DNA of 63,434 nt, counting the filler, from Asterionella formosa (Eukaryota): NCBI GenBank assembly GCA_002256025.1. It is 25 parts of 25 records of this genome, joined end to end, with 100 filler letters (N's around TTAATTAATTAA, not from the genome) between each part and the next. Parts side by side here need not be neighbours in the genome. Positions count along the whole stretch, not along the records: positions 20,930 to 45,753 come from NKIB01002146.1; 24 more parts are not named here. One strand, given 5' to 3'. Positions within the stretch are counted from its first letter, which is position 1, and every line of letters begins with the position of its first letter. The translations under genes and the position numbers were made by a program. The notes beneath the pieces were generated by a model that was given only the letters and a program-made list of their open reading frames with translations, did not search any database and was not told the origin of the DNA. Shown here one piece after another: positions 418 to 61,967 of this stretch.

Positions 418-1511
418 CGAAGTAACTTCGACACAATTACCGTCTCGTCCGTTTCGTCTTTCTCCATATGTAGTCTGTGTAGTACTAGCTTTGTGGGTAC
501 TTAGCTGCAATATATAAAATCGACCCATCAAATACTAGAATAGCGAGCCAGAAATACTAAGTAGAAGTAGCATAAATGGTTTTTGAATTCGGTGCTAAGT
601 AAACGTGTCCTTTTTCCAAAATCCGGGTTCAAAATGCGGATCCAATCTCCGGGTTCTGCGGCAGTCGAGTTGCGCTTTGCCGTGGGAGGGACGTAGGGTG
701 GGTGATTTTAGACTATAAATTGCGAAAGGCTTGGCGATGCTTTAGACTGCTTCTCTGAATTGTTATTCAAAGAATTGTGTGCTTCACCCTTGCACTAATT
801 CACTTGTTTAACCTCGCGTGGTTGCTCTTGTCTTCCCTTGTCTTAGCTGCCGATTCTTGGTTGTTCGATTCAACTCTAAAAGCTAGAACTTAATAGTCGC
901 GTTGTCGCTATATTGAATTCTCAGCTTCGACTCCTTCGATTCGCGTCGCGTGGTTTGTATCATCCGGTGCTCGCCTGATATACTAACTCCATCGCGTCCG
1001 TCCTTGTCCGTAATATCAACGAAGTAACTTCGACACAATTACCGTCTCGTCCGTTTCGTCTTTCTCCATATGTAGTCTGTGTAGTACTAGCTTTGTGGGT
1101 ACTTAGCTGTAATATATAAAATCGACCCATCAAATACTAGAATAGCGAGCCAGAAATACTAAGTAGAAGTAGCATAAATGGTTTTTGAATTCGGTGCTAA
1201 GTAAACGTGTCCCTTTTCCAAAATCCGGGTTCAAAATGCGGATCCAATCTCCGGGTTCTGCGGCAGTCGAGTTGCGCTTTGCCGATCCACTTTCCAGTCA
1301 CGACGAATTATGTTAGATGAGCCGTGGCATGCGCGTCTCGCCCTGCCATTGTCGATCGAGATGTGAATGCTATTGTATTTGCCGGCGGATGGAAGAATGT
1401 CGTTGTCGTGATCATCTTTTGGCTAACTGACTTCGTAAATTCCGCCACTTGCTTACGGATGTAAATTAGAAATGCGTCCGATTTCCAGCGACCAATTAGC
1501 ATGACCATGTA
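418..1511 (-). mobile_element. 3' end of a Ngaro-like tyrosine-recombinase (YR) retrotransposon with split direct repeats (B1-A2-B2)
   Basis: YR C-terminus at 1308-1511 is followed, in element sense, by a 265-bp direct repeat (1020-1284 and 418-682; 2 mismatches seen) flanking a unique segment 683-1019. Confidence 0.75.
1308..1511 (-). CDS. Tyrosine recombinase C-terminus (partial)
   Basis: MLIGRWKSDAFLIYIRKQV matches the GRW-x-S-x-A-F-x-x-Y-I-R catalytic-Tyr box of DIRS/Ngaro recombinases. Confidence 0.85.
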   Translation of the reverse strand, partial: YMVMLIGRWKSDAFLIYIRKQVAEFTKSVSQKMITTTTFFHPPANTIAFTSRSTMAGRDAHATAHLT

Positions 1512-9958: not shown

Positions 9959-10582
9959 ATGTCGTCGCCATTTGATTTACTTGATGATAATGACGATGAC
10001 AGTAGTGATCTTGATTTCTTCTTCCTCTGTCATTTAACTAAGGAAGCAGAGGAAAAAGAACACTCATCCAAACGACAAAGGCGACGCTGTAAACGGCAGC
10101 TTCAGTCATCTGAACGACGACGACAACGAAGGCACAAGTGGCACCACGAAAGAATCTCCTGGCAATCACATGTCGAGAAACTCAATCACGAGATTGCTTT
10201 CGAGAAGACATACAGAATGTCACACAGAGCATTCAAAAAACTCACCTCCATGCTGGAAATTCAGATTGCAGGGAATTATTCCAAATGTGGCACTTCTGAG
10301 CCCATAATTCCCGAAATTGTGGTAGCCATTGGTTTGCGATGGCTGGCTGGTGGCAGTTACATCGACATTCGTCATGCCTACGGTTGTAGCATTGCTTCAC
10401 TTTATCGATGTCGTGATTTGTTCATTGATGCTGTACTAAACTGTGAAGAACTCGAAATTATTTTTCCAAAAGAAAAAGAAGAATTTATCAAATTGGCTTC
10501 CAGCTTTGAATGCAAAAGCTCAGAGGGCGTGATGAGAGGATGTGTTGGTGCTATTGACGGCTTCCTTGCCACCATCAACCGC
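9959..10582 (+). pseudogene. Harbinger DDE transposase (DDE_Tnp_4/HARBI1-like), truncated after the first catalytic Asp
   Basis: FEKTYRMS-x-x-x-F-x-x-L, GLRWLAGGSYIDI, GCVGAIDG. Sequence after about 10582 is the antisense of ORF2. Confidence 0.88.
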
Positions 10583-10929
10583 ATGAGCGAGTTGACGAAC
10601 TCATCAATATTGGCTAGCCAACCGGGAAAGGGTTTCCTCTTTTCAGGGGGACCAAGAATCTCGTTAATGTCAAGAAGTGTACCAGTAGTAGTTGCAGGTA
10701 CGACATTTTCGGATGGATCCATCTCGTCAATGTCGAGTGTGTCAGCAGTTGGAGGTATTTTCATTTCAGGTGGAGGAACCATCTCGTCAATGTCGGTTGG
10801 ATCAGCAGTAGACAACTCAACAATATCTTCGACGTCCTCATCAGCTACAATGCATTGCTTCTCTTCCGAATCAATGCGAATAGAGGCAGCATCAGAAGTT
10901 TCAGCCGTACCCACTACTTTGCTGCTCAT
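10583..10929 (-). pseudogene. Harbinger accessory ORF2, N-terminal fragment
   Basis: Acidic N-terminus ending IDEFVNSL, homologous to 60339-60668 and to 62420-63434 (VDRFVDSLILPDDF). Confidence 0.75.
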
Positions 10930-11273
10930 TGCGCCAATTAATCGAGATATAGTCGATGTCGGAAGATTGGTATAGAGATGAGCGGACTACTGATTCTTGT
11001 ATGACTCACGAAGCTGAAAGGTAATGTATACAGAGTACCGTAGTATATATATAACAAAAAATAGTTGGCGCAATATTTAATAGTGTTGTGCTTGCGTATT
11101 TACAGTTATTTTATCAGTGGCAACGGACGTGATACACAGTGATCAACGGCTTGATCAGTGATACAGCATTGGTNNNNNNNNNNNNNNNNNNNNNNNNNNN
11201 NNNNNNNNNNNNNNNNNTTAATTAATTAANNNNNNNNNNNNNNNNNNNNNNNNNNNNNNNNNNNNNNNNNNNN

Positions 11274-22735: not shown

Positions 22736-23634
22736 AAAATAATAATAAAATTGCATCACCAAAAAGTACTCCAGTATTGATCTGCTAATTAAATTTACCA
22801 GCCTAGGCAAGTGATGGACAAATATACAATAAACACATTCTTTATACCGGAATGCTCCGGTAAATTGATATAGTAACATATGAATGAAAAGGAAGATTAC
22901 AACACGTCGCAAACTGTTTACCGGTATTCACATTTATGTATGTATGTTTACTTGGAGTACATCATAAGCCCTTCGCCGGCTGAGCACGCGATCGTGCCAA
23001 TTTAGCAATACACCGAAATAAGCAATCATGGGTGTGATGCACTCCAACGTACTATACCGGTAACCGGCATGTAGTCTCCATTGTTTCGCATAAAAGGTGT
23101 ACCTGGTACCGTAGAGTTGTGCGTGTGCGTCGTATATATTTCATTTATTTATGGCTGGATGATTATATATAATTGATAACGCGGTAACTCACATCATTGG
23201 CTATATCAAATTTGTATCGTATTGGAGGGGTCTCTAGTAAACCTGGATACCAGGGAACGGAATGATGTCTCGATATGATACCCTTTTTGTAGTCCAAGCC
23301 GCTCAAGGTTCATTAAATGTATAAGCAGGTCCATTTCTAATCCACGTCGTCATTCATTGAGTCATTCTTGGTCTGAAAAACAAACATTACAAAACGCTAT
23401 CATATTTCTCCATATGTAAAATACCTGTACATTTGTTGATCATTCAATTAAGAGCTTACAGTTTTTGACCAGGCGAAAAGGTGGTCATTGAATGCGAAGG
23501 CAGAGTGGCAGAATCAGTCTCGATAATAAACAGACAAGTGAGAGCTCAGAACAAGAAGAAATAAGGTATCCGTGCTGATCGATCGATTCATTGGTTCCTT
23601 TATTCGTTTCCTCCATCGTTTCGCGCAATTTGCA

Positions 23635-25755
23635 ATGCTCAGGATTCAGTGGATACTGCTATTTTTATATGTAATGCTTCCAATTTCTGTTTGTGGCATG
23701 GCTCCAGTCCATCCAGATGCGCCTGATTATGAAATATTACAAGAATACCACAGCCGACGGCGGCACGGCGTACAACCTGAGCTGCTGCATCCCAGAGTGT
23801 GTCAGGGACTCAGCGATGAGATATGCTTACAACTAGATTATGAAATGAAATCAAATGCCAGAAACTTGCAAAACATTGTTGAAACAGGTGGCTTCCTTCG
23901 AGTCTTGGTCCTCCTGATCAAGTTTACTGATCACGTTGACAGGGAGACGCCGCCATGGGAGAACTACGATATCCTCTTTAACGATTCTGGTGAGACGCCT
24001 TCGATTACTCCAACTCGATCTGTTGCTGCATTTCTGGATGTGAATAGTTATGGAAAACTGCAAATCGAGGCAGAGGTCATTCCATGGCGCCTTACAGACA
24101 ATACGGAGGAATATTATTCGTTCAATCAAAGCGGCCTCTCGACTGAATTTATTCGTTGCATGTACCCCATTCTAGATGAGCTGGAAGCCGAAGGATTTAA
24201 TTTTTCACGATTTGATTTGAACCAGGACGGTGTTATTGATTCTATCGGTACGTGCAGCAGACGGATTTTTGCATCAAGTAATTCTGTTTGCAATCCTCGA
24301 CTAACATTCCCTATGACTGACTTTTTTTGCAAAACAATAGTCGTTTTGCATTCTGGCTATGCTGCGGAGATTGGGGGAGAAGACTGCTATACGAACGCGA
24401 CAACCACAAATCGGATCTGGTCACATACTTTGGCCACTAGTACGGAGCAATGGATTTCATCGGATACCTCAATATCATCAAATGGATATGCGGTGGCCGC
24501 GGCCATGCGAGGCGCGTGCGATAATCGAACAAGCCGTATCGGTGTCATCACACACGAATTCTTGCACACATTCGGATTGCCAGATTTGAATGATAGCTCG
24601 GGTGATTGGATTGGAAAAGGACTGGGAAATTTTGATATCATGTCGAATCCGTTTGGAGTGAATACGGGTCAACTACATCCTCCTCACCTCTCGCCGTGGT
24701 GCAAAGCGCAGTTGAATTGGACCTATCCGTTCGAAATTACTCAAAATGGAGACTATGACGTTGTTGCATCCGAGTTGCAGGATAACATTTACTTGATCAA
24801 GTCTCCCTATCCCGATGGTGAATACATTTACATTGAGAATCGCCAGCCAATCCTGTGGGATGAGCTGTTATGGACGGGTGGTATAATAATTTGGCATATT
24901 GATGACCTGAAACCAAAAGAAAGAGACCGGGGATATCCCGGACAAGATGGGTGGCCAGGGAACAATAATCACTATATGATTGCTGTTGAGGCAGCAGACC
25001 GCAAGTATGATTTAGAGACTGGCGCGAACAATGGGGATGGTGGTGACTTTTGGATCCAAGGAATGGTGTATGGTTCTGGTCCAATTGATTTAGTGGCCCA
25101 AAATTACTCTATGTATCCCAACAGCAATTCGTATCAAAACGGAACGATTTTTCAGACAGGTTTATCGATTGAAATCCTGACCGCCAGCCAAGAAACGATG
25201 CGCATTCGTGTGACTGGCTTTTCCCCAACCCAAACTGTCAATCCAACATCTGAGCCTTCGCCGGAACCAACACTGAACCCCACTTATAGTCCAACGAATC
25301 AGCAAACAACAGAACCAACATCAAGCGGTCCGACCAGAAAGCCTTCGCATAGCACGATACCGAGTTCGGTTCCTTCAGGACAGGAATTACCGACATATAA
25401 ACCGACTTCAAGTCCAGTAGTAGCACCTGCTATTTCACCCACTACAAAGCCAATCACGGCAACCCCAACAATAAGCGGCAACGTATTTGGTAAACCAAAT
25501 TCATCGGTCCCTTCTCCCAGCGCTTCCCCAGAAGCGCCGGTGCCTTTTTCTCCTTTGACAGCGGCCCCAGTCGGTCACAATTTTTTTCATCCCACTATTG
25601 CTGTGAATAATAATACTGGAATTGAAGGCATAGGAGATGATCAGAATGCAAGCACGACACAAGGAACCGGCAGCATCACATCCGCAGGAGATCGATGGAC
25701 ATGGAGTCGATTCGCGGGTGTTTTTATATCGATTTTTGTTTATTGCATGTTTTAG
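23635..25755 (+). CDS. Secreted M6-family (immune inhibitor A-like) zinc metalloprotease with P/S/T-rich stalk and hydrophobic C-tail; intron 24248-24340
   Basis: Signal peptide, VLLIKFTDH, HEFLHTFGLPDL, DIMS, HLSPWCK-x-x-L-x-W, IENRQ, IWHIDD; GTACGT...CTAAC...TAG intron. Confidence 0.93.
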   Translation: MLRIQWILLFLYVMLPISVCGMAPVHPDAPDYEILQEYHSRRRHGVQPELLHPRVCQGLSDEICLQLDYEMKSNARNLQNIVETGGFLRVLVLLIKFTDHVDRETPPWENYDILFNDSGETPSITPTRSVAAFLDVNSYGKLQIEAEVIPWRLTDNTEEYYSFNQSGLSTEFIRCMYPILDELEAEGFNFSRFDLNQDGVIDSIGTCSRRIFASSNSVCNPRLTFPMTDFFCKTIVVLHSGYAAEIGGEDCYTNATTTNRIWSHTLATSTEQWISSDTSISSNGYAVAAAMRGACDNRTSRIGVITHEFLHTFGLPDLNDSSGDWIGKGLGNFDIMSNPFGVNTGQLHPPHLSPWCKAQLNWTYPFEITQNGDYDVVASELQDNIYLIKSPYPDGEYIYIENRQPILWDELLWTGGIIIWHIDDLKPKERDRGYPGQDGWPGNNNHYMIAVEAADRKYDLETGANNGDGGDFWIQGMVYGSGPIDLVAQNYSMYPNSNSYQNGTIFQTGLSIEILTASQETMRIRVTGFSPTQTVNPTSEPSPEPTLNPTYSPTNQQTTEPTSSGPTRKPSHSTIPSSVPSGQELPTYKPTSSPVVAPAISPTTKPITATPTISGNVFGKPNSSVPSPSASPEAPVPFSPLTAAPVGHNFFHPTIAVNNNTGIEGIGDDQNASTTQGTGSITSAGDRWTWSRFAGVFISIFVYCMF

Positions 25756-26141
25756 ATACGATTTGACTTCTGGTGCTGCAACAGGCATTTTGAAAGAGGC
25801 GTCTAACATGGAATGAATGTCCATTAGAATTTGATTGGTAGTAGCGACATTTGGGCTTCAATGAATAAGAACTATTAATCGAGAGCAAAAAGTCAAGGAG
25901 ATTACAATTCACCAGTGAGAGTAAAAAGCATAAGGGTTTGCTGTCAAAGCACACAAATAATTTGGAAGCACAAAGTTCCCAACCGTTTCCGTATTAGGTG
26001 GCTTTTTTGCTAGTGAATTGCTACATCAGTCTGGTCTCGCTAACACACATAATGTGCAAAATCAAAACTCCAATACTTTCTACACAAGTTTGGGTGATTG
26101 CTTTCAACTATAACGAGCGAAAAGTCTCATGTCCATATATT

Positions 26142-27993
26142 CTACTCTCTGCCACCGAATATGTTAATTCCTGTAGAACCTCCAGCACCTCCGCCGCCGC
26201 CTGAGAGTCGTAAAGAAACTTTATCGGCTTGTCGGGATTTCTTTTGCGGCGTAATGGTGACGAGAGGTTGAGCACTTACTGGGTCATTGCGGGAAAGGGA
26301 AATGGAAGGCATCCAAGATGAAATGGGCGACGGAGTGGTGGAAGGTGCCACAGGCGATGTAATGGGGGAGGGGGCTGTCACTGATGCCGATGAAGTCGCC
26401 AGCTGCGATACAGGTATGCCCGAGACTCGAAATGTCATTGTAGTATTCGATGCACTGAAATCGTAAACTTTTAGCTCAGTCTGCTGAATGTTTCCAGACT
26501 GGTAAGAATTCGTATTTGGAAAATACAGTGAATTATTGGTACCCACAGTGCTTAACGGACCAGGTCCAAGTAGCATACCATCGTTCCAAAAGTCGCCATC
26601 GTCTCCGGAGTTTTCTCCTTTTTCGAGGTCGAATTTACGATCCCCTTGTAATAGAGCAACTTGATAGTGCTTGCCATTACCGGGCCACCCGGATTGCCCA
26701 GGATAGCCTCGAGTGCTTTGACCAGTCTGGACGTTGTCATCAATATGATAGATTAGGATGCCACCCATTCCAAGGAGGCTATCATAGGACGAAGGTTGTC
26801 TATTCTCAATCAGTAAATATTCGCCCGTTGGATACATCCAATCAATTCGATAGTATTCACTGGCCTTTTCGCTGGCTGTGATGTCATATATGCCGTCCTT
26901 AACAATCTGGATAGGTTCGATCCAACCCAGTATCCATTTACTCCAAGCACTCAAGTGTCCTGGGCTTGTTCCATCGCCGTTTCTTCCGTATGGATTGCTC
27001 ATTATATCCCAGTATCCAAGGCCCTTTCCAATTCCTTCAGACGACATATCGTGGAGATCAGGTAAGCCTACGATTCGACAGGAGCACAGTTTGTATTAGG
27101 CAGCACATTCTATGATTGTTCCTCGACGCATCACTCCTTCGTCGACAGTACTTACCAAATGTATGCATTAGCTCATGCGTTGTGACTCCAATCCTCGCAA
27201 GTCCCCCATCACATAAACCTCTAAGCCCGGAGGATACAGAGTAACCATTTGCTTGAATGGATCCGTCAGGAGCCGTCCATTGGTCAGTTTGAAATGCCAC
27301 AGTGTGCGCCCAGATTCTCTCTGTCCCAGTTGCACCTGTTTCACAATCATTTCCACCAATCTCAGCGGGATAACCCGAATGAACAATAATAATGTTATCA
27401 ATTAAACCGTCGTTATTGTGATCCACTGCTGAAAAATCAAAATTGTTAGCATAAAGCTGATCCAATACGGGGTACATTGCAAATCGAAAATCCTGCGTCA
27501 AACCAGAAACGGGTACTCCAAATGAGTCCAAAGCAAAGTGCAATTCAGTGTTGTTTGTCATGATCCAATCAACGACTTCCGCTTCAATTTTAATCTGGTT
27601 ATATGAGTTTAGAGCGACCCACTCGCTGATCGAGCCTGTAGGAGTGGCGTCAGATATTCCAACGCCATTGAATAACTTTATGTAGTCCTCCCTAGCGGGC
27701 AAAACTCTGTTGACATGATCGGTGAACCGAATCAATAAGACGAGTGGTTTCAGAAAGTTGGTCGTCAACATAAGTTCCCTTAATAGACGGGCGTTGTTTT
27801 GCATTTCATCTTCCCATGTATCACATCCTTGGGATGACAGTCCCTTACAAATACTAGGATGGATCAAACGAGTCGAAGTGTAGTCGTCAACGTCAATGTT
27901 ATGTAGCCCATCATAACTTGGAGCATCGGGATGCAATGGCGCAATAGCAATAGCCACGGTCGGTAATAGAAGAAAAAGCAACCAAAATTTCAT
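26142..27993 (-). CDS. Second secreted M6-family metalloprotease; intron 27068-27155
   Basis: Signal peptide; HELMHTFG|LPDL joined by a GTAAGT...TAG intron; DIMSNPYG, HLSAWSK, IENRQ, IYHIDD. Paralog of the previous gene. Confidence 0.93.
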
Positions 27994-30944
27994 GATCTTG
28001 ATTGATATTGAACTATGCAGGTATTTCTGAGTTAGTTTGATTTTTCGTTCAATTTATGGCGGGTCGAGGTGAAATGGTGTTCTCTGTCGTGGTTTGTTTG
28101 CTCGTTTGAGACTACATAATGTAGATATATATGGTATAGAGTGTGTGTTTATATTTATTTATCCTATGTACCTGATATACTCATATATATCATAATATTC
28201 ACAATCTTTATTACATAAGACTCCAGCTTCCAAATGATTTTTGTTTACATATTAATACATGAGTATATTGTTATTTTCAAGCAGAATGGATAGCGGTATA
28301 CACAAAGGTAATGTGCGCCATAAGTCCCGGTTCCCCTTTCATAAGATTGGCTGGTAGCCACTGTGCAAGTTGTCCTTGGTAAAATTGGAAATTTTACAAA
28401 ATCTTCCTTCGTATATTTAGTAATGCTGAAGTCGGTACACCTGGTACCAGGTACCATTACTGTTAGCTACTGGTGCTTCGTCCTGTACTTGTATTCTTAT
28501 TTGGCGGTGGTGGTAAACTGTATCCGGTGCTCTCTCGTAAAGTTCTTATACACCGTGAGCACAACATTCGGTCACCCACGACCATATCGCCACCAACGAT
28601 CAGGAAGGCGTACGCTAGCCCTGGTATAGTATTTACGAACTTACATCATTGTTCTCCAGAGGAAGGTCCGCTAATCGAGATATTTAGCTTAATCATAGTC
28701 TGAGTAAATCCGGCAATCGAGATATTGAGCTTTACTGCGTTTACCCGACCTTCCAGCAGAAGCATATTCCACCCCATTAGAGCATATTAGAAATCCCAGC
28801 CGCGATGCTAAATGGTTTCCGTACTAATAATTGACCTACGTATTATATGGAGACTAACATGTGCAGTACTCTATCCAATGAAAAGGTGGTGTACTCTATG
28901 TAGGAAAACAATACTACTTATTGATGGTCCCTGAGTGTCTTAATCTCACTTGGCTTGTCCCAAGTGAAAAAAGCGAATGCACCACCACAGATTAAATTTA
29001 AAACAAAATTGGAAGAAAGAAAAAAGATTAAAAAGGAAATAGTGCAGAATTTGTCCATCATTTGGGAGAAAGTACCCAGCAGGACTGAGAACTCCTGTGT
29101 TGTTGGTGACCAGTGTATTGGGTGTAGTTACCTTTCCTATTTATGTGGTATGTTCCATGGGTTGGCTGCTATCATTGGCACAAAAAAAATTTGGGGCTAA
29201 TGAAGCTAATTGTAATGATTGCCAGGATGATCAGTTGGCAAGTGACCCATTCGCTTGGTGGTGTCTTGTATTGGGTCACATAAAAAGCAATTTTATTTTT
29301 TGAAAATTTTCAAATACCTTAAGTTGATTTTTTTGATTTTCAATGTTACAGTCCAGTTATGATTCAACAATATGTGATTGCACACATGAAACTTTCACTA
29401 GGTTGCTCAAAACTTTCATGCTTGTTGAGTGGTTGGGTAGGATGAATTAATTGTTTTTGAAGCATCAGTTGTCCATGGTATGATCAGCACTTTGAAAGGT
29501 GATTGACTCACCATTCAATAGCAGTTGCCGACATTGTATATGTGTTTTCCAACAATGGTTCTGGGCATATGAATTACTGCTTGCATCCCGCATTGTACTA
29601 GTACTGTACTGTAAAACCAGAATGCATTGCATCTTGCACTGCCGTATTGAGTATTGTTTTCGATGCCATCAAACTCTTGAAACAAATGTGACACATCTCA
29701 CAATCCAATTTTATTGAGGGCCATACAACTGGTGGGCCCATGAATTGCATAGTTTTGATATATTGCTTGATGAGCCCATGATATGCATGTACTATGACAT
29801 CATAATCAAACTGTTAAACAGATTTTAGGATTCTAAAAAATCATAGCAGATTGATTCAATTTCCTCCCAATGTTATGCTTTTGGCCATGGTTGCTGCTAG
29901 TTGATTTTCCTTTGCAGCATGGCTCGAGTGGTGACGATGATGATAACCAAGGTTGTGCCAATTGAATCACTCTACAGGTCAGAATACTTGGTGTTTTAAA
30001 GAATTTCGAATTTAATCTAGCTTTATAATGAGCAAGCATAAAGTGATTTACAGTAAGACCATCATATTATTTAGCGAGGTGACTAGAAATTCTTACAATA
30101 CCATAATGTAGCGACTTGTTCCCCTGACCGACATATTGTGCAAAAGTTGTATTTCTCTTCATACAGCCTGAAGCAATGTTCGTTGTTTCTGTTTTTTGCA
30201 ACTGTGGTCATCGTCACAAACCATCTGTGTGTGCTTACAAGGTCTGGTTTAAAACCAGACACCTTGATCCTTGTATTCTTGAATGCTGACAATTAAGCTG
30301 GTAACTGATTGTCCCATGTCATTATCGTGAATCCCATCTGAAGTTTCATCAGATAAATTATGTCTCAAGAAGGATTTCAAAATATTTAAATGGAACAATG
30401 GTTCCAGTGCCATGACCGACGACTTTGTGATTCCTGGCGCACTGTTAAGAGCATCAGAAATGTTGTACTTGGATCTCTTTCGCTTGCATCGTTAGTAGCA
30501 TTTTCCAAACTGTAATCGACTACCTCGTTTTCACATGCATCATTCCATGCAAATAATGGTAATATTTCTTTCTTCACTTCGCTTATAGCCATTTTTGCAT
30601 TAGCAGAAAAAGGAGTCCCTATCTTGCATGATAGCTGAAATAGTCTTTTCGTGCACTTACAATAGCCACAGCGTCCGTTATAGTTTGAGTGTCCAAAGCT
30701 GCAAAACATGTCAGTCAGGGGAAATCGTCGTGATTGCATTATTTATCTTGATATCTAGCAAATCATTAAAAAATTTATCAATTTTCTATGCAAGTTAAAC
30801 TGCCTACTATTCCTGTTTAGATATCTTGAAACTGGATTGTTTGTCAATTTACTACACATGACTGAATATGTGGTACTAGCTTATCACGCTATTACCTAAT
30901 TGAATACCTGTTCATAAACAAAGCCCAGTATTGCTACTAGTAGG

Positions 30945-35383: not shown

Positions 35384-36386
35384 TAAGAATGCTGAGAATA
35401 GTGGACCCCGTGTGCTTGCTCCAACAGGTTGAGCTCCACTGGATGAGAAATTCCCACTTCCATATGAGTCAGTGAAAAGGTCAGCTGGAGTAAAGACAGA
35501 CTGAATATCACCAATGTTTGGCTGTGATCTGCAATCGAAATGATCTTTTATGGAGAGATCACTTGCATATGCAGCCCAAACTTGAGTATCATTTATTGTC
35601 AGTGCACCTCTGACAGTCCAATGAACAGCAACTTCCAATTGATCCATGGGCACTACAATTATTGATATGGTGTCGCAAGTGCGTATAATTGATGGAACAG
35701 CATCATCAGAGAATGCAATGTTGTTTACGCCAATTATTGAAACATAGGGTTGGACGATGTCAGAACTTAGTAGTGACAGTCTAACACAGCATGAAATGTA
35801 CCCATTACCACTTGTATCGCTTTTCAATACATTTTCAGTATTTCCCGAAGTTCCCAAGCCAGGAGTCTTGTCATTACTAATCTCAACTAGTATATTAAAT
35901 GCTTGCAAGACAGAGTCATTGTAGACCTTTTTCTCAGAATAGTACCCACCATAGGTACTTGGGTTGCATTGAAGGATCCCAACTTGCTGCATATGCCCAA
36001 TCCTCCATGCCACCCCTTACATCATACACAACTTCATTGCTATTTCCAACCGCGAACACTAGACTGTTTCCAAAGCTACCCCCATATCTTGAGTACGCTT
36101 GGACAATCTCCGCTTGCGAATAGTCATCAGGCCTCAAGAATCCCAACCACAACGATGCGCCTCATTTATATGAAATGACTTCTTGGCCCCCATGAAAGGT
36201 GAAAGCTAGTTGAATGAGGTGTTCCCTAAAGATTTCATTGAGAATCCTTGCGCCTACAGGCAGATATTGGATTGACTTATTATATTGTATGTATACTGAG
36301 AAAAATTGCTTGCGCCATGCTGAAAAAATGACCCCATAAATGTTGTGTGGTTAGCTATTCATTTGGTTATAATTGATATCATTAGT

Positions 36387-37721
36387 TCAGGACCAGTTGG
36401 AAGGGAATTGATGGTTTCCATTCTTCATGCTTCCGCTCATTGAATTCATTCCCCCATTGTTTGTTTGCATTCCATAGTTCATTTGCATACCATTATTATT
36501 CATACCATTGTTGAATTGCTGATTCATGCCCAATCCACTACCAGAGTTCACCATCATCATCTGCTGTTGCTGTTGTTGCATCATGAACATCATTTGTTGC
36601 TGTTGTTGAGGATTCATAGATCCATTGTTCATTTGAATCATCAATTGTCTTTGCATCATGATCAAATTCTGTTGCTGCATTGGATTCATACCACCAGTAG
36701 GGTTCATGTTGTTTGGTTGCTGTTGCATACTGTTATTCGTCATCATCATGTTTCCACCACTACCAGCAACATTAGAATTCATGGGCAGGGTTGGTCCACT
36801 CCCCATCATCATCAAGTTGGAAATAGCACAGCTGTTGGTAGCGGAAGCACCCCCCATGATTGGTTTCTTTGTAGCAGTATTGCAAGTCATAGTGAATGCT
36901 GCAGGTGCAGGTGCAGGTGAAGAACTCACTTCAAGTCCACTAAAGTCGGCGACAAATGAATTGACAGAATTGGTCGCAGCACCAATGCCAGTAAAAGATC
37001 CCTTAGATGGATCCGACATGACAGCTGTTGGTGGCTGGATAAAGGCAAACCCAGATGACGTTGGTGCCGATGGAGGCTGTGCAGGCGGAGGCGTACATAC
37101 AGCAGTCGTCGGAACAGGAAAAAAGGAATCAAAGTTTGCGTGAAATACGTGATTCTGCGCAGGTGCAGTGGTTGTTTCTGCAGCTGGTGCAGAAAAGTCA
37201 AGAAGGTCCATGACAGGGGGAAGGGGAGCAGAAGCGGGTGCAGCAGCGACGGCCGGCGCCTGGATTACGACTCGTTGGGCAGCCGGAACAGGAGCCGATG
37301 CAAAAGCAGGCGCAGGCTTCTCTCCGGCCCCCTCGTCGTCTCCAAAATAATTTCTTCGCTCGTATACATCCACAACGAATGACTTGAAGACATTCAGGTC
37401 CGACCCCGGCTGAGGTCTCCCCCCTTGACCGATCGGAGGCGCGTGCTTCAACCAGGTCCTTCTCGCGACGTCATTGCCTCCCTGCTGCTCCAACTTGTCG
37501 ACTTCTTCATCGGTCCACGCTGACATGGTTGTGGACTTGCATCTATGACTAATGGCCTGATGCGACGACTTGCACTCATTGCACACGAAGGTTAGGTACT
37601 TGATGCAAATGGACGACCACCCAAACTTCTTTTCGTTCCCGCAGTTGGCACAAACGGTATTTCCTGGCACGCGAGCAAGTTTGCGGATCTTTTGTTCCGC
37701 TCTAGTGAGGTTGGATGCCAT
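36387..37721 (-). CDS. ArfGAP-domain protein (AGFG/AGD14-like) with low-complexity M/Q/N C-terminus
   Basis: GNTVCANC-x16-17-CNEC-x-x-x-H zinc finger, W-x-x-EEV, GGN-x-x-AR-x-x-W, DLLDF motif. Confidence 0.92.
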   Translation of the reverse strand: MASNLTRAEQKIRKLARVPGNTVCANCGNEKKFGWSSICIKYLTFVCNECKSSHQAISHRCKSTTMSAWTDEEVDKLEQQGGNDVARRTWLKHAPPIGQGGRPQPGSDLNVFKSFVVDVYERRNYFGDDEGAGEKPAPAFASAPVPAAQRVVIQAPAVAAAPASAPLPPVMDLLDFSAPAAETTTAPAQNHVFHANFDSFFPVPTTAVCTPPPAQPPSAPTSSGFAFIQPPTAVMSDPSKGSFTGIGAATNSVNSFVADFSGLEVSSSPAPAPAAFTMTCNTATKKPIMGGASATNSCAISNLMMMGSGPTLPMNSNVAGSGGNMMMTNNSMQQQPNNMNPTGGMNPMQQQNLIMMQRQLMIQMNNGSMNPQQQQQMMFMMQQQQQQMMMVNSGSGLGMNQQFNNGMNNNGMQMNYGMQTNNGGMNSMSGSMKNGNHQFPSNWS

Positions 37722-38707
37722 GATGCTTGCTGGCTGGTTCGGTTCGGTTCGAGACTTGTTACTTTAACTTGTCGGGGAGCGGAGTGACCAAGATGGTCAA
37801 CACAGTCACGACGATGAAATGTGAACAAGACAGACTGTAGTATTGCTTACCGGTATATGTATTACTCCGGAGTCCGTTTAATACTGGGTACCAGGTACCT
37901 GGTACTACTGAACTGGATTATGTACGGTATTGGAATTACCGGTAGCTGCCGCATTATTTATACCCAACGTCCATGCATCATTTTATTACAAATTACCTGG
38001 TACGTGGTATAGTACCACCAGGTTCTTTTCATTTTTGTCACGAATCAAGTCCACTAACTGCACGGAAACTGCAACTCACAGCCAGAAACGGTACCAGGTA
38101 CCACCTACCGGTACTGGAGTCATACTCACTGTTTTTCTGCGTGAGAGCTGCTTGGGCGTTTCTCTCTCCTGCTGCCGCCTTCTTGTTGTTTGGAAAAATC
38201 AATCCTCTTGTATCATGACATAATAAAAATAATACCAGTAGGATAGGTTAGCTACCGGTATTTCATTTCTTTCCTTCGAGCTCGTCATGCTATGAATATG
38301 CCGGTGGTGGTATGGTACCTGGTACTAGGAGTGAGTACCCTTGTATCTGGTACCAGGTACCAGGTAACAATCGACTCATGCATGCCTTTGAAACAGGAAA
38401 CCGGTTCCAGGTACCGGTTCTCGTACAGTAGGTACATGGTACCCTAGTAGACTACCAGTTTATAGATGCCTCCCAACCACGATCGAAAAAACTGTGTGCG
38501 GTATGTATACGACTTATAGAACAGCCAACAAGCAAAAATGGACGACGACACGAAAGAATTTTAGAAGTTTCGCTAACGCTCCTGAACATAAATTATCGAG
38601 GCCAATGCATGCTCCCACTTTTGCATCTACCGGTACTGCCTCCTATTGTTCTCTCTTTAGAATTTGCTTGATCCGATCCACTTTCCAATACAAGAAACAG
38701 CAGCAGA

Positions 38708-39978
38708 ATGAAGGCATTCTTCGATAAACTAAAGGGCGATGACAAAAACAACAACAAAAACAAAAACAACAACCCATTTGCCAACTTTGGCGGGCCGCGC
38801 ACGTTTGGAGGTCAAGGGCAATCATTGGGTGGTTCTCAACCAGGCAAGGTCCTTTCTGTTACTTTAGAATATCCTGGTACATTGGGAATGAAGGTACGGC
38901 ACGCGATGCGTGTAGACTATACATTTGTATCAATGTTGCGTTGCAGGCCCCTATCCGATTTTGAACCTTCCTTCACATTGACACCATCTTTATCCAAACC
39001 TCCTTTTAGATTGAAAAGAGACCCAATTCGGCAGGAAGTGCCATTGTTGCCATGGTTGTTCCTGGGGGACAAGCCGAACTAGCAGGCCTTTTACGTGGTG
39101 ACATTCTTTGCTGGCATGGCAAGGAAGAAGAGATCAGTTACGATGAATTTATTCAAATGGCCAGCTCGGACGTGCGCCCCTTGACATTTGATATTAGACG
39201 TATCAAGACAAATGCACAATCGTCAGCATCAGATCAAATTGATGTCTCAACAGCAGAGGCATATCAAAGGAAGCAAGCAGTCATTGCAGCTGCTGAAGCA
39301 AGGGACAAGGCGTCGAAGCAACGGAACAAACCTATCCCAAAGAAAAGCAAGGCGACAACGTCTGTACAGAAAATTAACGAGTTAACTGATATGCCCATGT
39401 CAGAAGAAGCCAAAAAGGCAGTTCAAGCTGCAAAGATGGGTGAAACGGAATTCGCAAAGCAGCTGGGCTACAATCCGTATGAAACAAACAAGGCTACGGC
39501 AGGTCAAGCACGGAACGCCACAGTAGCTGCCAAACATGGAAACATTCATTCTAAGAACAAGGATGCTGTGCCCGCAGAAGTAACCCCTCCAAAAGAGGTC
39601 ATCCAACCTGACCTGCCTCCTGTCTCTCCTTCATTTGAAGAGGCTTACATGGTTGTCGTCACGTCCAATCCATCCGATCGTGTTGTGACTAGTTTTTCAA
39701 TTATGCGTAAATTAATCGTCAATGCCACCACTAAGGGGCAAACCTTGGACGACGATACGTCTGCCAAATTCAGAAGGGTCCGATTAGCAAATGACAAGAT
39801 TAAAGCAGCTATTTCTGAGGTTCATGGGGCACTCGACCTCATGATGAGTGTGGGATTTCACTTAGCCGAGGAAGGTGGGGAGTCCTATCTTGTTTATCCT
39901 GCCGGAGAAGCTACGCCATTGTGGATGGAGACTGGTCTGACTCAAATGGAACAATATGAAATCAATTCGACAGCGTAG
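38708..39978 (+). CDS. PDZ + PUB domain protein, putative p97/Cdc48 cofactor; intron 38894-39009
   Basis: Spliced GTLGMK|IEKRP...VVPGGQAELAGLLRGDIL (PDZ); KLIVNA...KFRRVRLANDKI...GALDLMMSVGF (PUB); GTACGG...TAG intron keeps frame. Confidence 0.88.
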
Positions 39979-40058
39979 TAGTCACGGAACGAGTCAATTA
40001 AATTTGAAACTATGAATTTTATCATGTACACAGGATCAGGATTAACATTGGAAGGATA

Positions 40059-41843
40059 CTACCAGTCGTCCCCCCAATCTTCTTCGCCTTCCTGAACGAC
40101 TGCAGACGACGCTGAGACATTCACAGTAGGAGTAGCTGATAATTCTTGTTCTGGAGCAGCGACGATGGTAGGTACGGGAATGTTGTCGTCGTCGCTCTCC
40201 GGAATGGGAATCTGCACACCAGACGAACACGTGTCAAACGATTTTTCTTCGACACTTTTTGCATTTATGGCAGTTCTGATCGATACAAGTTGCGCCGTCA
40301 AATCAACCACCTTTTCATCCGACGCGTCCGCCTTGGATTGCATTTTCTGGAGCTGCAAGTTGAGAGACTCAATTTCTTTGCAGTGGTCTACCGACGCATC
40401 TTCGGCAGCCACTTTGATCTTGGCGGTTTCTTCTTTGAGGAGCTTGTCAAAAGAAGCCTTTTGCGCTTCCATGGCAGCCTTGGCTTCCGCAAGTGCGACT
40501 TTCAACTCATTGCATGACTCTTCCACCAAGGTTACTTGACGCTGCGCATCTCGCAATTGAAGCTTGAGCGATTCGCATTCCTCCTTGGCCCCCTTAGCGT
40601 CTTGCAAGGCAGCTGACAACCGACCATCTTCTTCCGGAGATACCAAGGCTGCCATTTTGGCATCCGCATCTTCAACTTGTGTCGCCATTTGGAACTCAAA
40701 TTGTTCCTTCGCCTTGGCCATGTCGGCAGCCTGTTGATCCATGGATTTCTTCAGCTCGTCGATAGTCGCCTCAAGGTTCTTAATGTTGGCATGATCAAGC
40801 TTGGCTTGCTTGTCATCCATGTGCTTGTCTTCTCCGCTAGCTTTAAAAGCAGCCAGCTCTGCATCCTTTTCAAATAGTTTCATTGTCAATTCCTCTACTT
40901 GCTTGAGAATCGCGGGTGATTCTTTGCCATTTTTTAAGGCAGCCAATTCCTTGGCTTGCAATGCGACCGTTTGATGAAGGGCATCTCTTTCAGCCAATGC
41001 CTCTGTTAGCTTGTCGTCTGCTACGCCCCCGGTAAATTCAATTTCTTCCTCTGGTTCTTTCTGTTCTTCAGGTTCCCCTTCGTCGTGTCCTTTTTCTTCG
41101 TCCTCGAACGATTCATCGTCGTCACCCCAACCTAGCTCCTCTTCTACTTCCTCCTCCTGCTCGTCATCATCATCGTCCTCATCAACTGCCGTGTTCAAAA
41201 CAAACGGTGGTCTACCTCCAAACAAGCTGGCACCAGCATTGAACGCAAATGGACTAGCTGGCACAGGTTCTTGAGCAGACTTGTCGACTCTCTCTACTGC
41301 CTTACTGACAGCCGCCACAGCCCCACCGAACAGGGATGTGACAGTGGCAATGCCGCTACTAATTGCAGCTTCTCTGGCAAGTTTCTTCTCTTGGTACTCC
41401 TGGTCCCATTCCAACTGAATTCGTCCTTCGTCGCAGCGATAAAAGTACCGCATCCAAAAGTCCTTATAAGCGACTTGCTCGGGACATACCATTTCAAAAC
41501 ACTCCTTCACTGAAGCAGAGGTCCCCAGCAAGGTCGCAATCTGGTCTGTTTCAGACTCTAGATCAAACGTTTCCACAAACGCCACCACGTCCGGTCGGCT
41601 CTCGTCCAACGGTTCCGTGTATGTTGCTGTCAGGGTTCGTCTCCTGGCCACTTCGTCAGACACCGAAACCACCATACCAGTGGCTTCAAATCCGGATTCC
41701 AAGGAAAGTCCATCTTCTCCCGTGACGTCGCCCCCAAGTTCCAAGTTTTCCACGGATTGGGTAAGTTTCGTAGTCACAACGGCGGTTTCCTCTTCAACGC
41801 CTGACACAAACTCTTTAAAGTCACTGGTGAGTGCAGCCCACAT
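40059..41843 (-). CDS. BSD-domain protein with acidic linker and long coiled coil
   Basis: CPEQVAYKDFWMRYFY (BSD FW-x-RYF motif), ELGWGDDDE, C-terminal EEDWGDDW; 594-aa intact ORF. Confidence 0.88.
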   Translation of the reverse strand: MWAALTSDFKEFVSGVEEETAVVTTKLTQSVENLELGGDVTGEDGLSLESGFEATGMVVSVSDEVARRRTLTATYTEPLDESRPDVVAFVETFDLESETDQIATLLGTSASVKECFEMVCPEQVAYKDFWMRYFYRCDEGRIQLEWDQEYQEKKLAREAAISSGIATVTSLFGGAVAAVSKAVERVDKSAQEPVPASPFAFNAGASLFGGRPPFVLNTAVDEDDDDDEQEEEVEEELGWGDDDESFEDEEKGHDEGEPEEQKEPEEEIEFTGGVADDKLTEALAERDALHQTVALQAKELAALKNGKESPAILKQVEELTMKLFEKDAELAAFKASGEDKHMDDKQAKLDHANIKNLEATIDELKKSMDQQAADMAKAKEQFEFQMATQVEDADAKMAALVSPEEDGRLSAALQDAKGAKEECESLKLQLRDAQRQVTLVEESCNELKVALAEAKAAMEAQKASFDKLLKEETAKIKVAAEDASVDHCKEIESLNLQLQKMQSKADASDEKVVDLTAQLVSIRTAINAKSVEEKSFDTCSSGVQIPIPESDDDNIPVPTIVAAPEQELSATPTVNVSASSAVVQEGEEDWGDDW

Positions 41844-42629
41844 GATGAATGGAGGGGATGTGGGATGGACTCTATATAAAATGTAGGGAAATGAATGTTA
41901 CTGCCGGTAGTTGATTGGACACCGTGAATGATTTTGTGGCAATAGCGATGGTGCGACGATAACAAAAACCCGTTATATTTTTTCTAAAGAACACAGAAAA
42001 GTTAGAAAAACTTTACGTACAAAAAATAAATAAATATCCAGATATAACCCGTATTCATTGCATGCGTGTATGTAGGGATATAGCGGGGGACCAAGACTTT
42101 CAACTTGCACGACGAACTCCCTCCCCTTCACGAATCAATCAAAATTCTTCAAAACGACACACAAGAAAGCCGCCTTCCCTATCATTGTTGCATGTTGTCT
42201 CCTTTCAAAGAGATGCACTCACCAAGCACGTAAATGATGAAATAATGTAGAATCGAAAAACAAAGAAACGTAATGTAGTATTGAACGAGAAGCAATGATT
42301 CTTGCGAAGATTGAACAATGGTATGTATGTACTGACTACCTGTACATTCCTACAATGTTTTTAGTAAGAATTTAATTTTATCATTGACTGTCTACATATA
42401 CCAGGTACTGGTACCAGGTACCAAGGGAACAGGGGTACTATCTGCTGCTGTATTTCTTAGTCTACTGGTAGTCGTCTACCGGTGGTCTATGTAGACACGG
42501 TATGTGTAGTGGTACATGTAGAAAATATACATCATTTTGAAAGAACAATTCCGTTTTCCTGTGGCTATTTCTACGTTAACTAATACTGGATGAATAGGAT
42601 TTACGTACCAGGCAGGTACCGTTACAAAT

Positions 42630-42915
42630 TTCGACACAATTACTCTCTCGTCCGTTTCGTCTTTCTCCATATGGAGTCTGTGTAGTAGCTTCGTTGGGAC
42701 CCCGCTGGAATACCGGTATATAAAATCGATCCAGAGAAAAATAGAATAGCGACCCAGAAATTCTGAGTAGAAGTGGAATAAATGGTTTTTGAATTCGGTG
42801 CTTCGCTATATTAATATCTCAGCTTCGACTCCTTCGATTCGCGTAGCGTGGTTTGTATACCGGTAGTCCAGTGCTTGCTTGGTATATCTCCATCGTGTCT
42901 GTCCTTGTCCATAAT
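42630..42915 (-). mobile_element. Solo A-B remnant of the Ngaro-like element
   Basis: 42630-42802 matches 427-597; 42803-42915 matches 905-1014. Internal deletion, no coding sequence. Confidence 0.8.
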
Positions 42916-45543
42916 AGACACTGTCGGAGGATGTGCGTAATAAAGGACCGTCTACTGGTACATACGTTGTACCAGGTATCCACCATTACACACAAACGAA
43001 AGTCCCAGTTCCTATATTCTTGCTATTTTTGGAATGATTTCTACTGGTCTTTGGCGAGATTGGCAGGTGGCCAGCAAGGAACAAATAACATTGTGGTTGC
43101 CAGAAGCATCTCTGTCCTAGAACTGGAATTGAATTGAGTTCTTTGTAGGACATTACACTTCTGGATGTTCATGGGGGACAATGAATGGTTGGATATTCTT
43201 CAACAAGCGGCAGATCAAATGATAATGGGTAAAGCCTCACAAAATCTCCGGAATGGATAGTATTGCGTAGATGGTTTGACTTTTTCTCCTTAATCAGCCC
43301 ATCTGCCTCTAATTTACTTGCACCTGTAGCAGTTAGAACTCTTTCCATTTTAGCTGTAATAGTCAAAACATGGTAGAGGTGATGGATTGGATGCCATTAA
43401 ATTGTAAACAACGATGATGATTCTAGTCGAGCTATGCAAGGGCATTCTCGACGTGTCTACTATCAATAAAACAAAATGTAATTTTGCTACTATAGAAAAC
43501 AATGGACAAGCTAAATTAATTTCCATCCTTTGAGGCTTCTTCTACACGTTCCAAGTAGGAACATACGAGAGCAAATCTTTCTGTGAAACCAACTCTGGTG
43601 GGTATTGCTCGAATTCAAGGTATTCCTTCTTTTGGCATGGAAATATCACCCAATACAAGGTTTTCTCTCTTTTGGGCTTTTAAAATTTCCCAATACAACG
43701 TCATAAGTTTCAATACAAGTTGACAATTTTTGGCAATTCAAGGTCGCCTCTGTTTTGGGTTTTGTCAGCAGTAAAACATCATGTACCAATGCAAGGTCAT
43801 AATTTCCAATACAAAGTGACGATATTTTGCAATTAAAGGTCGAACCTTTATTGGTATATAGTCCTGGGAAAGGATAATACGAGATCATATTAATGCGCAT
43901 TGATTATATAACCCCGTCACTTTTTGAAGTATATGATCATCCAGTAATGTGTACTTTCAAAATTTTCTAAACATTTTGGCAATGTGTCTTGCTGGCATAT
44001 CGTGCTACTCAAATTTTTCTGCACTGAGAGTGTAAAGCATACAAATATATATATATGCATACATACTGAGACACATCACTGAGCCAATGGTACTATTTAT
44101 TGAGGTCACAAAAATAATGCCTCCAAGCTGTTTTATATCCTTTACAATGATGTGCGTCAAACATTTTCTCACTGCTTTACTCATCATCTCTAGCTGAGCA
44201 GGGAATGGGCACATGCCTAAATAAAGCGCGCCCCATGGTTGAGGAATTGAAATTCACTCATGACATGCATAGCATGTAGCTCCTTCTACTTTGAATTGTC
44301 TGTGCGTTATTTCTCACCTTTCATCGTGATTTTGTTCACTTCAGGAGTTCTTCAGAAACACCATCATTATCTCAGTACTTCTTTCGATGTAATTGAAGGA
44401 TCGGTGAATTGTTGCATGATTGGAAACGAAAAAGCCAGCTCGGCAAATAATATACATATTCCGAATTTGTGAAGGTTTCGTTGTTTTATTTTGCTTGCAT
44501 GCTATTTCTCAAGCTTGCTCTTGTTTCTGTCATTGCAGTGCTTAACTGTAAGCATTTCTTTCTCAGCAACTCCAATTCGCTTTGACTGATGAAGGATTGG
44601 TGAATTGCCATGAAGGCAAAGCTGGCTGGTGTCTTTGCTCAAGAACTTATAGATGATTCAAACATTTATGGTGTATTTTTTGCTTTTTAAATGAGCAACA
44701 AATAAATTTGCAATTGTTAAGATTATAGTATTTTAGCAATTAGTTTGCTATAAACTGAAAAAGGATCATGCGAAGAATACTGTAATGAGTTTTGCAAATA
44801 AGTTCTTGTTCTTGCATCCAATTTCAGGGCTACCTTGTATTGGATCCAAGTAAATATACCCCTTGTATGGGCGTGTCTAATACAAGGAATGCCTTAAATT
44901 GGAACTGATGTTCTGATTGGTTTACCAATGCAAGGTGGATGTGACAATACTAAAACCCAGTACAAGCAAGGTACTATTCATTTTGGAGTAACTTTTCACA
45001 CCTTGTATTTTAAAAAATCGGGTCATTATGGAACATAGCTTGTTTTGGAAAAGTGTCTATTTCCTGCTTGTATTGGAGACAGCACAGATTCACAACCCTA
45101 ACAACAAAGCTAGCCAATACAACAAGGTCACCTTTGTTGTTCTGGTAAACTACTTTTTCACCTTGTATCAGATGTATTTTTGTTTCGTGTTCAGTGATGG
45201 AATAAAAACATAACAGCCAGTAAGCTAATGACAAACCTCATATCAGATATATGATATTAATTAAACAGAAAACTAATAATAAGGGGTCAACAGGAAACCT
45301 ACATGTCATCATCATGAAACCAACAATTGCTGATAATATATTTACATACGTTCCAGTATGTATGATGTAGGTACTCTCTGGGGATTATGAGGATGCAGTG
45401 GTCGGTGATGCGGCATGCCGCGGGCTTTAAAAAAAATGGGCGCGCACTCCACCAGCGAAATCAGGCGGGGACAAAAAAAAGACTAAGGCAGTCTACTTCG
45501 TTCGTAACAAAACCATCAGCCAGACCCAATGCACCAAAAGACA

Positions 45544-45753
45544 ATGACGAAGGTATCGTCGCTACTGTTGCTGTTGTCATGTACTACCACAATACTCTTG
45601 TGCCAAGGTCTTGTACAAAAGTCGTTTCCATCAGCAGGTAACAGAAGAACTTTCAGAGCGGGTTCAGGTGCTAGTAGAATCGAGAATTCCATCAACCTCA
45701 TCTCGTGCTGGACGAAGGAGATTTCTATGGATGACGACGTTGAAGATGTCTTG
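45544..45753 (+). CDS. N-terminus of a signal-peptide-bearing protein (partial)
   Basis: MTKVSSLLLLLSCTTTILLCQG followed by an S/R-rich segment; open to contig end. Confidence 0.5.
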
Positions 45754-60322: not shown

Positions 60323-61570
60323 ACTCGACGTTGACGAGATGGGTACTCCACCTGAAATGAAAATACCTCAAACTGCTGGTACACTCGACGTTGACAAGAT
60401 GGATCCATCCGAAAATAGTGTACCTGCAACTGCTGGTACACTTCTTGACATTAACGAGATGGGTCCCCCTGAAAAGAGGAAACCCTTTCCCGGTTGTCTA
60501 GCCAATATTGATGAGTTCGTCAACTCGCTCATAGTACCAGATGACTTTATTCTGGATGAAAGTGGGCTGGGATTGATTCATATAAAAGGAATTGACATAA
60601 AACATATATCTGTCGAGGTACTTCGAAAAATTTGCGTGAGATTTAAAGTGTCAGGGTACAGGAATGGCGAAGCCGTCAATAGCACCAACACATCCTCTCA
60701 TCATGCCCTCTGAGCTTTTGCATTCAAAGCTGGAAGCCAATTTGATAAATTCTTCTTTTTCTTTTGGAAAAACAATTTCGAGTTCTCCACAGTTTAGTAC
60801 AGCATCAATGAACAAATCACGACATCGATAAAGTGAAGCAATGCTACAACCGTAGGCATGACGAATGTCGATGTAACTGCCACCAGCCAGCCATCGCAAA
60901 CCAATGGCTACCACAATTTCGGGAATTATGGGCTCAGAAGTGCCACATTTGGAATAATTCCCTGCAATCTGAATTTCCAGCATGGAGGTGAGGTTTTTGA
61001 ATGCTCTGTGTGACATTCTGTATGTCTTCTCGAAAGCAATCTCGTGATTGAGTTTCTTGACATGTGATTGCCAGGAGATTCTTTTGTGGTGCCACTTGTG
61101 CCTTCGTTGTCGTCGTCGTTCAGATGACTGAAGCTGCCGTTTACAGCGGCGCCTTTGTCGTTTGGATGAGTGTTCTTTTCCTCTGCTTCCTTAGCTAAAA
61201 GACAGAGGAAGAAGAAATCAAGATCAATACTGTCATCATCATTATCATCAAGTAAATCAAATGGTGACGACATGATTCATGCAAATGTGTGTTTTCAATA
61301 TAATATTTAGTTTCCCGGTAATTATATTTTATGTTGTTGCTTGATATCAAGACCATCATTATATTCCGGAGGGATATACACATGATCTTCGCCAGCCAGT
61401 TGCCGTTGAAGATCCATGTTACTCCGTGATACAATGTGATCACAAATTAGTGATACAGTGACACTTTTGGAATGAATGAAATTCAGTTCAAATCGAGTTA
61501 CCGTTGCTGATACATTTTCAAAAAAACTTCAAATTCCGTGATTCACGAAAAAAAATGATAAGAACGGCCC
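60323..61570 (-). mobile_element. Internally deleted PIF/Harbinger transposon, copy 2
   Basis: TIR ...AATGATAAGAACGGCCC ends at 61570 followed by TGA. Transposase 61273-60668 (frameshift near 61180) is fused to an ORF2 fragment at 60323-60668. Confidence 0.88.
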
Positions 61571-61828
61571 TGATACACAGTGATCAACGGCTGTATCAGT
61601 GATACAGCATTGGTCAGGGGTCCAAAAACTGTATCAGTGATACACCCATGATACACTTGTGATCAGACCAAAAAAACCGTTGGTGATACACAAAAAAACC
61701 CAAGGGCCGTTCTTATCATTCTGTTATTTGTTGTCATTGGTGTATCATCGCCGAAATATGATACAAAAATGGCGGTTTGGTTTTTTTTTGTGTATCACCA
61801 ACGGTTTTTTTGGTCTGATCACCGGTGT
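61571..61828. mobile_element. Nested Harbinger ends: subterminal segment 61571-61703 and inward-facing TIR at 61704
   Basis: 61571-61614 matches 11130-11173; GGGCCGTTCTTATCATT at 61704; 61659-61698 is inverted relative to 61783-61821. Confidence 0.75.
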
Positions 61829-61967
61829 NNNNNNNNNNNNNNNNNNNNNNNNNNNNNNNNNNNNNNNNNNNNTTAATTAATTAANNNNNNNNNNNNNNNN
61901 NNNNNNNNNNNNNNNNNNNNNNNNNNNNAGTTAAATTTATTTTTACTGTGAGATCAAAGTAATCTAA

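Follow-up and report, generated by a model that had tools for sequence, protein, structure and literature searches.

TA-bounded CCGG insertions in a solo Ngaro relic of the diatom Asterionella formosa as probable excision scars of pogo transposons

The relic of a solo Ngaro retrotransposon in Asterionella formosa carries two six-base insertions at TA dinucleotides, each turning TA into TACCGGTA. These insertions are real gains and are most likely scars of a cut-and-paste element that left its TA site. Judged by end letters and target bias, TACCGGTA gains in this genome are very probably excision scars of resident pogo transposons that end TA/CCG...CGG/TA (slashes mark element boundaries), with excision as the step that we infer. 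The window, meaning the whole stretch of 63,434 nucleotides that was analysed, consists of contigs joined by spacers; the relic and the young Ngaro element with which it is compared lie on different contigs.

Results

A solo Ngaro relic has gained six bases at two TA sites

The young element and the relic comprise the following features, in window coordinates.

418..682, minus strand: young Ngaro B2 repeat, with empty site 1 at 508-522; 99.2% identical to 1020-1284
683..1019, minus strand: young Ngaro A2 repeat, with empty site 2 at 953-970
1020..1284, minus strand: young Ngaro B1 repeat, directly after the recombinase ORF
1308..1511, minus strand: C-terminal end of a tyrosine recombinase ORF (IGRWKSDAFLIY), as read from the ORF
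42627..42802, minus strand: relic, B-repeat part of a solo AB Ngaro remnant; matches 424-596 with 82.7% identity over 179 columns and 12.9% substitutions
42711..42718, no strand: site 1, TACCGGTA; gain from TA to TA-CCGG-TA, probable pogo excision scar
42803..42916, minus strand: relic, A-repeat part; matches 905-1015 with 80.3% identity
42858..42865, no strand: site 2, TACCGGTA; second 6-bp gain in the relic, compared with 953-970

Pieced together from separate contigs, the repeats form the split direct repeats of a Ngaro element: B-A-B at 418-1284, A alone in three fragments (L022-L024) and many AB solos. The stretch 703-1019 recurs in L022-L024 without B and beside a long ORF, and is read as the 5′ A1 copy. 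A longer recombinase copy (L010, 2-730) matches PF00589 with E=0.0026, below the curated cut-off, and carries R, H-x-x-R, W and Y motifs that we take to be those of a tyrosine recombinase. On the basis of the split repeats and the recombinase beside B1, the element can be assigned to the Ngaro retrotransposons. The labels Ngaro and solo, given in an earlier sequence-only reading of this window, hold on repeat layout, tyrosine recombinase and solo AB copies. Ngaro elements are described as having an A1-[ORFs]-B1A2B2 layout, a tyrosine recombinase and scattered solo AB copies (PMC8547959), all three shared by the element here; the relic differs by an internal deletion of 308 bases (597-904 of the young unit) between its B and A parts, and is a mere substrate of the event. 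Solo AB copies of Ngaro also sit inside elements of the CCA-ended family treated below (L013, G000:C13989:2571-4118; L014, G000:C10000:999-2096).

At site 1 the relic has GAA-TACCGG-TATATAAAATCG (42708-42728), which leaves a clean gap of 6 bp against both young repeats, which read CAA-TATATAAAATCG at 508-522 and TAA-TATATAAAATCG in the second repeat copy. The coordinates and letters reported in the sequence-only reading for relic and young copies were confirmed, as was its central observation that the relic holds two TACCGG-type insertions. At both sites the net change turns TA into TACCGGTA, and three readings of the inserted unit are possible, TACCGG, ACCGGT or CCGGTA. The stretch around site 2 (953-970) varies between Ngaro subfamilies, and the relic's likely empty site 2, TGTATAGTCC, has the length and TAGTCC end found in an old copy (L021).

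Two genome searches gave loci on 41 contigs, and the best 40 candidates of each were scored, a subset of the family. All 38 other aligned copies were empty at site 1 and all 30 at site 2; of these, 17 and 11 respectively had diverged by 5% or more. None of these copies represents a sister subfamily that carries the motif, and each filled junction occurs exactly once when the whole genome is searched. A contig of sequencing run X1 covers 42290-42834, including site 1, with 0 differences, and site 1 is therefore not an assembly slip; this run may be the source sample, and the long pieces listed for it cover site 1 and none of them site 2.

The same alignments yielded 3 gains in 52 aligned segments from 41 contigs. 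The third lies in L004, a copy 0.8% from the young element, which has its own TACCGGTA gain at another TA; the second repeat of L004 is without it. The process is thus recent and does not require age. The sequence-only reading had proposed a gain in the older relic, and gain was borne out.

The homologous locus carries further gains of the same word

Fragment L033 (G000:C14144) is a homologous copy of the relic locus, in which the solo occupies the corresponding position. It is without site 1, and the stretch of site 2 is deleted there, so that it offers no same-locus empty site 2. With 17 old copies and L033 empty, site 1 is polarised as a gain in the relic rather than a loss elsewhere. The argument originally made for this direction, that both copies of the young repeat are empty, is correct as an observation and a weak polariser, as both repeats belong to one element and are not ancestors of the relic. 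Four nearby positions also differ between the window and L033.

42276..42277, no strand: empty TA in the window; TACCGGTA in L033
42463..42470, no strand: TACTGGTA in the window, absent from L033; probably a scar decayed at its CpG
42477..42484, no strand: TACCGGTG in the window, absent from L033; probably a scar plus one later substitution
42528..42529, no strand: second empty TA in the window; TACCGGTA in L033

L033 therefore carries two TACCGGTA gains of its own. The filled form at 42276 has a depth of 482/955 in run X1 and full depth in X2, X6 and X7, three runs that show mostly the L033 form. The window form and the L033 form are alleles or else a duplicate, and the about equal depth of both in X1 suggests alleles. 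When window 41817-43850 is compared with L033, 1 of 194 bases differs at the start of a BSD gene, rising to 11-15% upstream; the BSD-domain protein neighbours the relic and has diatoms as its named relatives.

The word is abundant and recurs among small insertions

Genome-wide, TACCGGTA occurs at 28,528 sites in 68.4 Mb, or once per 2.4 kb, against 1,718 for the reversed control. The window contains 37 sites against 0.8 expected, making TACCGGTA its most over-represented 8-letter word apart from the gap spacer, and TACCGG has 102 matches there against 9.8 +/- 3.6 in shuffles. Other TA-bounded words in the window include TACATGTA (4 sites) and TACAGTA/TACTGTA (13 sites). CpG decay was considered as the source of TACCWGGTA and rejected: the window has 33 such words against 5 of TACCSGGTA and 1 of TACTGGGTA, and the flanks differ. 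The spacers (N-TTAATTAATTAA-N, at 1512-1611 and in every later gap) inflate TTAATTAA counts and inverted-repeat lists, and among the inverted-repeat matches listed for the window gap spacers were the only ones.

Small insertions were surveyed in 700 kb of fetched fragments, chosen around repeats and not a random sample, that were aligned all against all. Indels were kept when seen against at least 3 homologues with the minority state shared by at most one quarter as many; 1-bp indels, indels longer than 12 bp, poorly aligned flanks and alignments shorter than 120 bp or below 75% were dropped. Twelve of the 28 polarised 6-bp insertions were exactly TA to TACCGGTA and 3 more were off by one base, whereas this form is expected in 0.01% of cases for random letters and 0.4% for tandem duplication. 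They fall in Ngaro, pogo and other repeats, in agreement with the earlier suggestion that unrelated repeat families show the same event. TA is present in the majority empty state for 10 of the 12; for the other 2 most empty copies have no TA at the site, and the gaining copy must therefore have mutated first.

Among three six-base deletions, none was an exact change from TACCGGTA to TA; one 6-bp 'deletion' (C15057) removes a CCGG-type word found in most pogo-A copies and is ambiguous in direction. One-sided 5-bp gains exist as TA-CCG-TA, TA-CGG-TA and TA-CCA-TA, and 1 of 8 polarised 7-bp gains was an exact member of the TACCWGGTA class.

Other size classes showed regularities of their own. Insertions of 2-11 bp outnumbered deletions by 327 to 82. 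Of 63 unambiguous 3-bp insertions, 59 duplicate 2 bp and place G or C between the copies (null 1%), and 42 of 72 4-bp insertions can be written XY-GC-XY (null 15%). They may be scars left by an element that duplicates 2 bp. One candidate source, a 90-bp repeat, was rejected, no pair showing a 2-bp duplication. This 90-bp inverted-repeat element (G000:C9456:1933-2024, C12388, C6657, C14021, C118) is flanked by a CAG or CTG duplication. It often lies inside TACCWGGTA words, from which scars seem to be targets for this small element too.

Resident pogo families end in CCG

The genome contains 93 DDE_1 matches. Families A, C and D end TA/CCGT...ACGG/TA, and family B ends TA/CAG; for this CAG-ended family no clear excess word was found in the window. 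Family A is ~2.46 kb long, has near-identical young copies (99.5-100%) and encodes a 421-aa frame that matches DDE_1 (PF03184, E=1e-21), in which D321 to D357 give DD35D. Its BrkDBD match is weak (E=0.0067, below cut-off), and it has no HTH_Tnp_Tc5 match. CCG-type ends number 515 genome-wide against 77 for the control, which corresponds to roughly 250 elements. TA lies outside 57 of 60 ends of families A and C, and homologous empty sites hold a single TA. With a DDE_1 domain and its DDxD triad, short TIRs and TA duplication, family A can be placed in the pogo superfamily. Searches of the genome for Tc1 (PF13358) and mariner (PF01359) transposases each gave 0 matches, and in the mariner search the controls also gave nothing. 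A second frame of 145 aa in family A, converging on the transposase, has no Pfam match (L073, 781-1218; L060, 785-1222). Copies of pogo B and C sit inside other repeats.

A further family ends TA/CCA...TGG/TA, with 491 exact ends against 1 for the control. Its 2.9-kb form carries a broken DDE-like frame, for which the genome holds 152 protein matches; copies lie at L189 3290-6191 (G000:C1997:17289-20190) and L211 907-2370, and many forms of 730-1550 bp are non-coding. The ORF, as read, has 37 residues between the last two D; it gave no Pfam DDE match and no significant BLASTP match to family A, and in its atlas features the protein is like DDE_1 clusters at 0.95. A decayed CCA-type end with TA outside is present in the window at 2126 on the minus strand (1881-2126).

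Flanking bases tie each word to a family

A scar is expected to be flanked by bases that reflect the target bias of its source element. A purine stands 3 bases outside TA at 54 of 65 CCG ends (0.83), compared to 0.50 for background TA, and at 20 of 24 flanks of the 12 fresh gains (p=0.0008). The flanks of isolated TACCGGTA words have it in 201 of 306 cases (0.66), a weaker bias than that of element ends (0.83). The relic's two sites have a -3 purine in all four flanks, when the second TA is taken as the target at site 2. Isolated TACTGGTA/TACCAGTA words have a purine at this position in 117 of 186 flanks, which fits decay of TACCGGTA at its CpG. By contrast, GG precedes TA at 39 of 55 CCA ends and 382 of 620 TACCWGGTA flanks, compared to 2 of 65 CCG ends and 1 of 24 flanks of fresh 6-bp gains. 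These matching biases tie the 6-bp word to the CCG pogo families and the 7-bp word to the CCA family, the latter link resting mainly on flanks together with one polarised 7-bp gain.

The same flanks bear on whether the 6-bp word could instead be a footprint of the CCA-ended family, or of an unseen CC-ended one, with CC and GG as 2-base leftovers. CCA ends cut at two bases would also leave CC and GG, and 12 of 232 TACCGGTA sites do have GG context on both sides. We regard this source as improbable, because the fresh gains differ from CCA ends in GG before TA (p=1e-8), both relic sites are without GG context, and inverted-repeat scans of the fetched fragments, which were not exhaustive, gave no TA/CCGG-ended element.

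The CCA family nevertheless meets the scars as a target. Directly after a GGTA-ended scar-type word lie 41% of 37 CCA ends, and in L209 two CCA elements occupy the two TA of one TACCAGGTA. The GGTA at a scar's end makes the scar a preferred target of the CCA family, and re-insertion at scars would build the mixed-orientation arrays seen here.

Excision and end joining as the probable source

The following model would account for the gains. A pogo-type element with CCG...CGG ends, or a short non-coding derivative of one, would insert at TA in a dead Ngaro copy and duplicate the TA, as seen for CCG families at other loci. Tc1/mariner transposases place their cut on one strand 2-3 nt within the transposon (PMC2170065). 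Once the ends are joined, a footprint of 2-4 bp (PMC7913693) remains between the TA (PMC2874221, PMC7913693). By analogy, later excision of the pogo element would leave 2-3 end bases per flank, from which end joining would yield TA-CCGG-TA. If the overhangs were the three bases CCG, pairing of the terminal CG would give TA-C-CG-G-TA, which would explain one dominant product; a 2-base cut with fill-in would give the same 6-bp letters. The one-sided gains TA-CCG-TA, TA-CGG-TA and TA-CCA-TA favour the 3-base cut. CCA overhangs joined over an A-A mismatch would likewise produce TA-CC-W-GG-TA. The Ngaro relic would be a passive target only. Observed in support of this model are TA duplication on insertion, matching end letters, matching target bias and young copies.

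Against excision stands the excess of ~28,500 words over roughly 250 CCG elements. A whole element and a scar at one site were not found: flanks of 12, then 25 two-ended elements gave only empty sites against the 700 kb, a comparison of low power, and three junction-pattern searches of the genome gave scarred copies alone. Among the loose ends listed for 35400-45750 in 4 of 24 runs, a set that leaves out runs with small shares, none was an element end. Given the ratio of words to elements, element/scar pairs should be rare between old haplotypes, and this miss says little.

An intermediate stage is dispensed with altogether if repair of a cut made at TA by a nuclease or transposase always adds CCGG. 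Such direct insertion agrees with the very uniform product and with the lack of an observed intermediate, and a majority of 3- and 4-bp insertions likewise share a fixed form (a 2-bp duplication plus G, C or GC) for which no source element was found. It is nonetheless quite unlikely, since the added letters are the ends of resident elements and the two word classes follow the target biases of two different families, one each. We know of no enzyme that cuts at TA and adds a fixed CCGG.

Least probable of all, and very unlikely, is an origin by slippage or point mutation in which selection maintains the word as a transcription-factor site, the argument made for Phytophthora palindromes: P. infestans promoters contain TACCGGTA as motif M94 (PMC3597505), a footprint origin of TACATGTA was rejected by PMC3520976, and 0 of 26 words lie inside the 8 long ORFs of the relic's contig, but the gains arose as clean 6-bp events within dead repeats and within transposons, tandem duplication gives the TA to TACCGGTA form too rarely (0.4% of the time), ORF avoidance also follows from purging of insertions, and selection could retain some scars but does not make them.

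Discussion

Excision scars of pogo elements would place these words among footprints of a known kind. Those of Tc1/mariner elements (Tc1 TACATGTA, Sleeping Beauty, ZB and the ISY100 cut geometry) share with them TA duplication and 2-4 leftover end bases between the TA (PMC2170065, PMC7913693, PMC2874221, PMC3520976). They differ in that one product occurs here once per 2.4 kb, whereas TACATGTA is called a rare Tc1 footprint (PMC3520976), and in that the source here would be pogo-type, not Tc1 or mariner. Within pogo, family A resembles the Passer family in DD35D, DDE_1, weak BrkDBD, short TIRs, TA duplication, a length of about 2.4 kb and 421 aa; Fot-like elements are also DD35D. Passer has been reported in stramenopiles (PMC7386202) and leaves 0-4 bp footprints (PMC9976928); putative footprints are known for the pogo-related Emigrant (PMC1636448). 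In rice, 8 of 94 excisions were clean (PMC4423477); with excisions there mostly imprecise, the uniform product here needs its own explanation.

Stowaway elements in Triticeae offer a parallel to re-insertion, where scars bounded by TA consist of end fragments and a later element has inserted at the TA of an older scar (PMC1925063), much as in L209; the account concerns one intron with mixed footprints, in contrast to the uniform words found genome-wide here. Footprints of such a kind are therefore known, including re-insertion at an old footprint, and none was found in print at this density. In the literature covered, TACCGGTA appeared in print only as a Phytophthora promoter motif (PMC3597505, as far as its available text extends), and scar words of this sort were not reported in diatoms; most subscription journals, figures and supplements lay outside the scope.

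The Phytophthora motifs M93 (TACATGTA) and M94 (TACCGGTA) are the same palindromes, abundant in the non-coding DNA of another stramenopile. They were read there as transcription-factor sites, and in the text available a footprint origin was rejected without a filled/empty test; for TACATGTA the reasons given were the motif's abundance and conservation (PMC3520976). We tentatively raise a broader idea, which we consider possible and somewhat doubtful: scars may be the main source of small insertions in the diatom, feeding back through the GG/TA target of the CCA family into mixed-orientation arrays; the abundant TACATGTA and TACCGGTA 'promoter motifs' of Phytophthora may owe their origin to this process and not to transcription-factor binding; and over-represented TA-bounded palindromes in stramenopiles may be a fossil record of past transposon ends. 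If the scar reading of TACCGGTA is right, the 28,528 genomic TACCGGTA words would record past transposon jumps, each scar class could be assigned to a family by end letters and target bias, and past excisions would become countable without the elements. The footprint reading of Phytophthora TACATGTA would be reopened and could be tested by filled/empty comparisons in repeats, and searches for motifs in diatom and oomycete genomes should take excision scars into account.

Other features of the window

A repeat ending AGGG(C/T)CGTTCTTATCATT occurs at window 9664-10975, 60651-61571, 61967-63434 and 22659; its frame has no Pfam match and is presumably Harbinger-like. At 23542-28053 lie two converging head-to-head genes of peptidase M6 type, the first matching PF05547 (E=8e-8) and the second assigned by likeness only.
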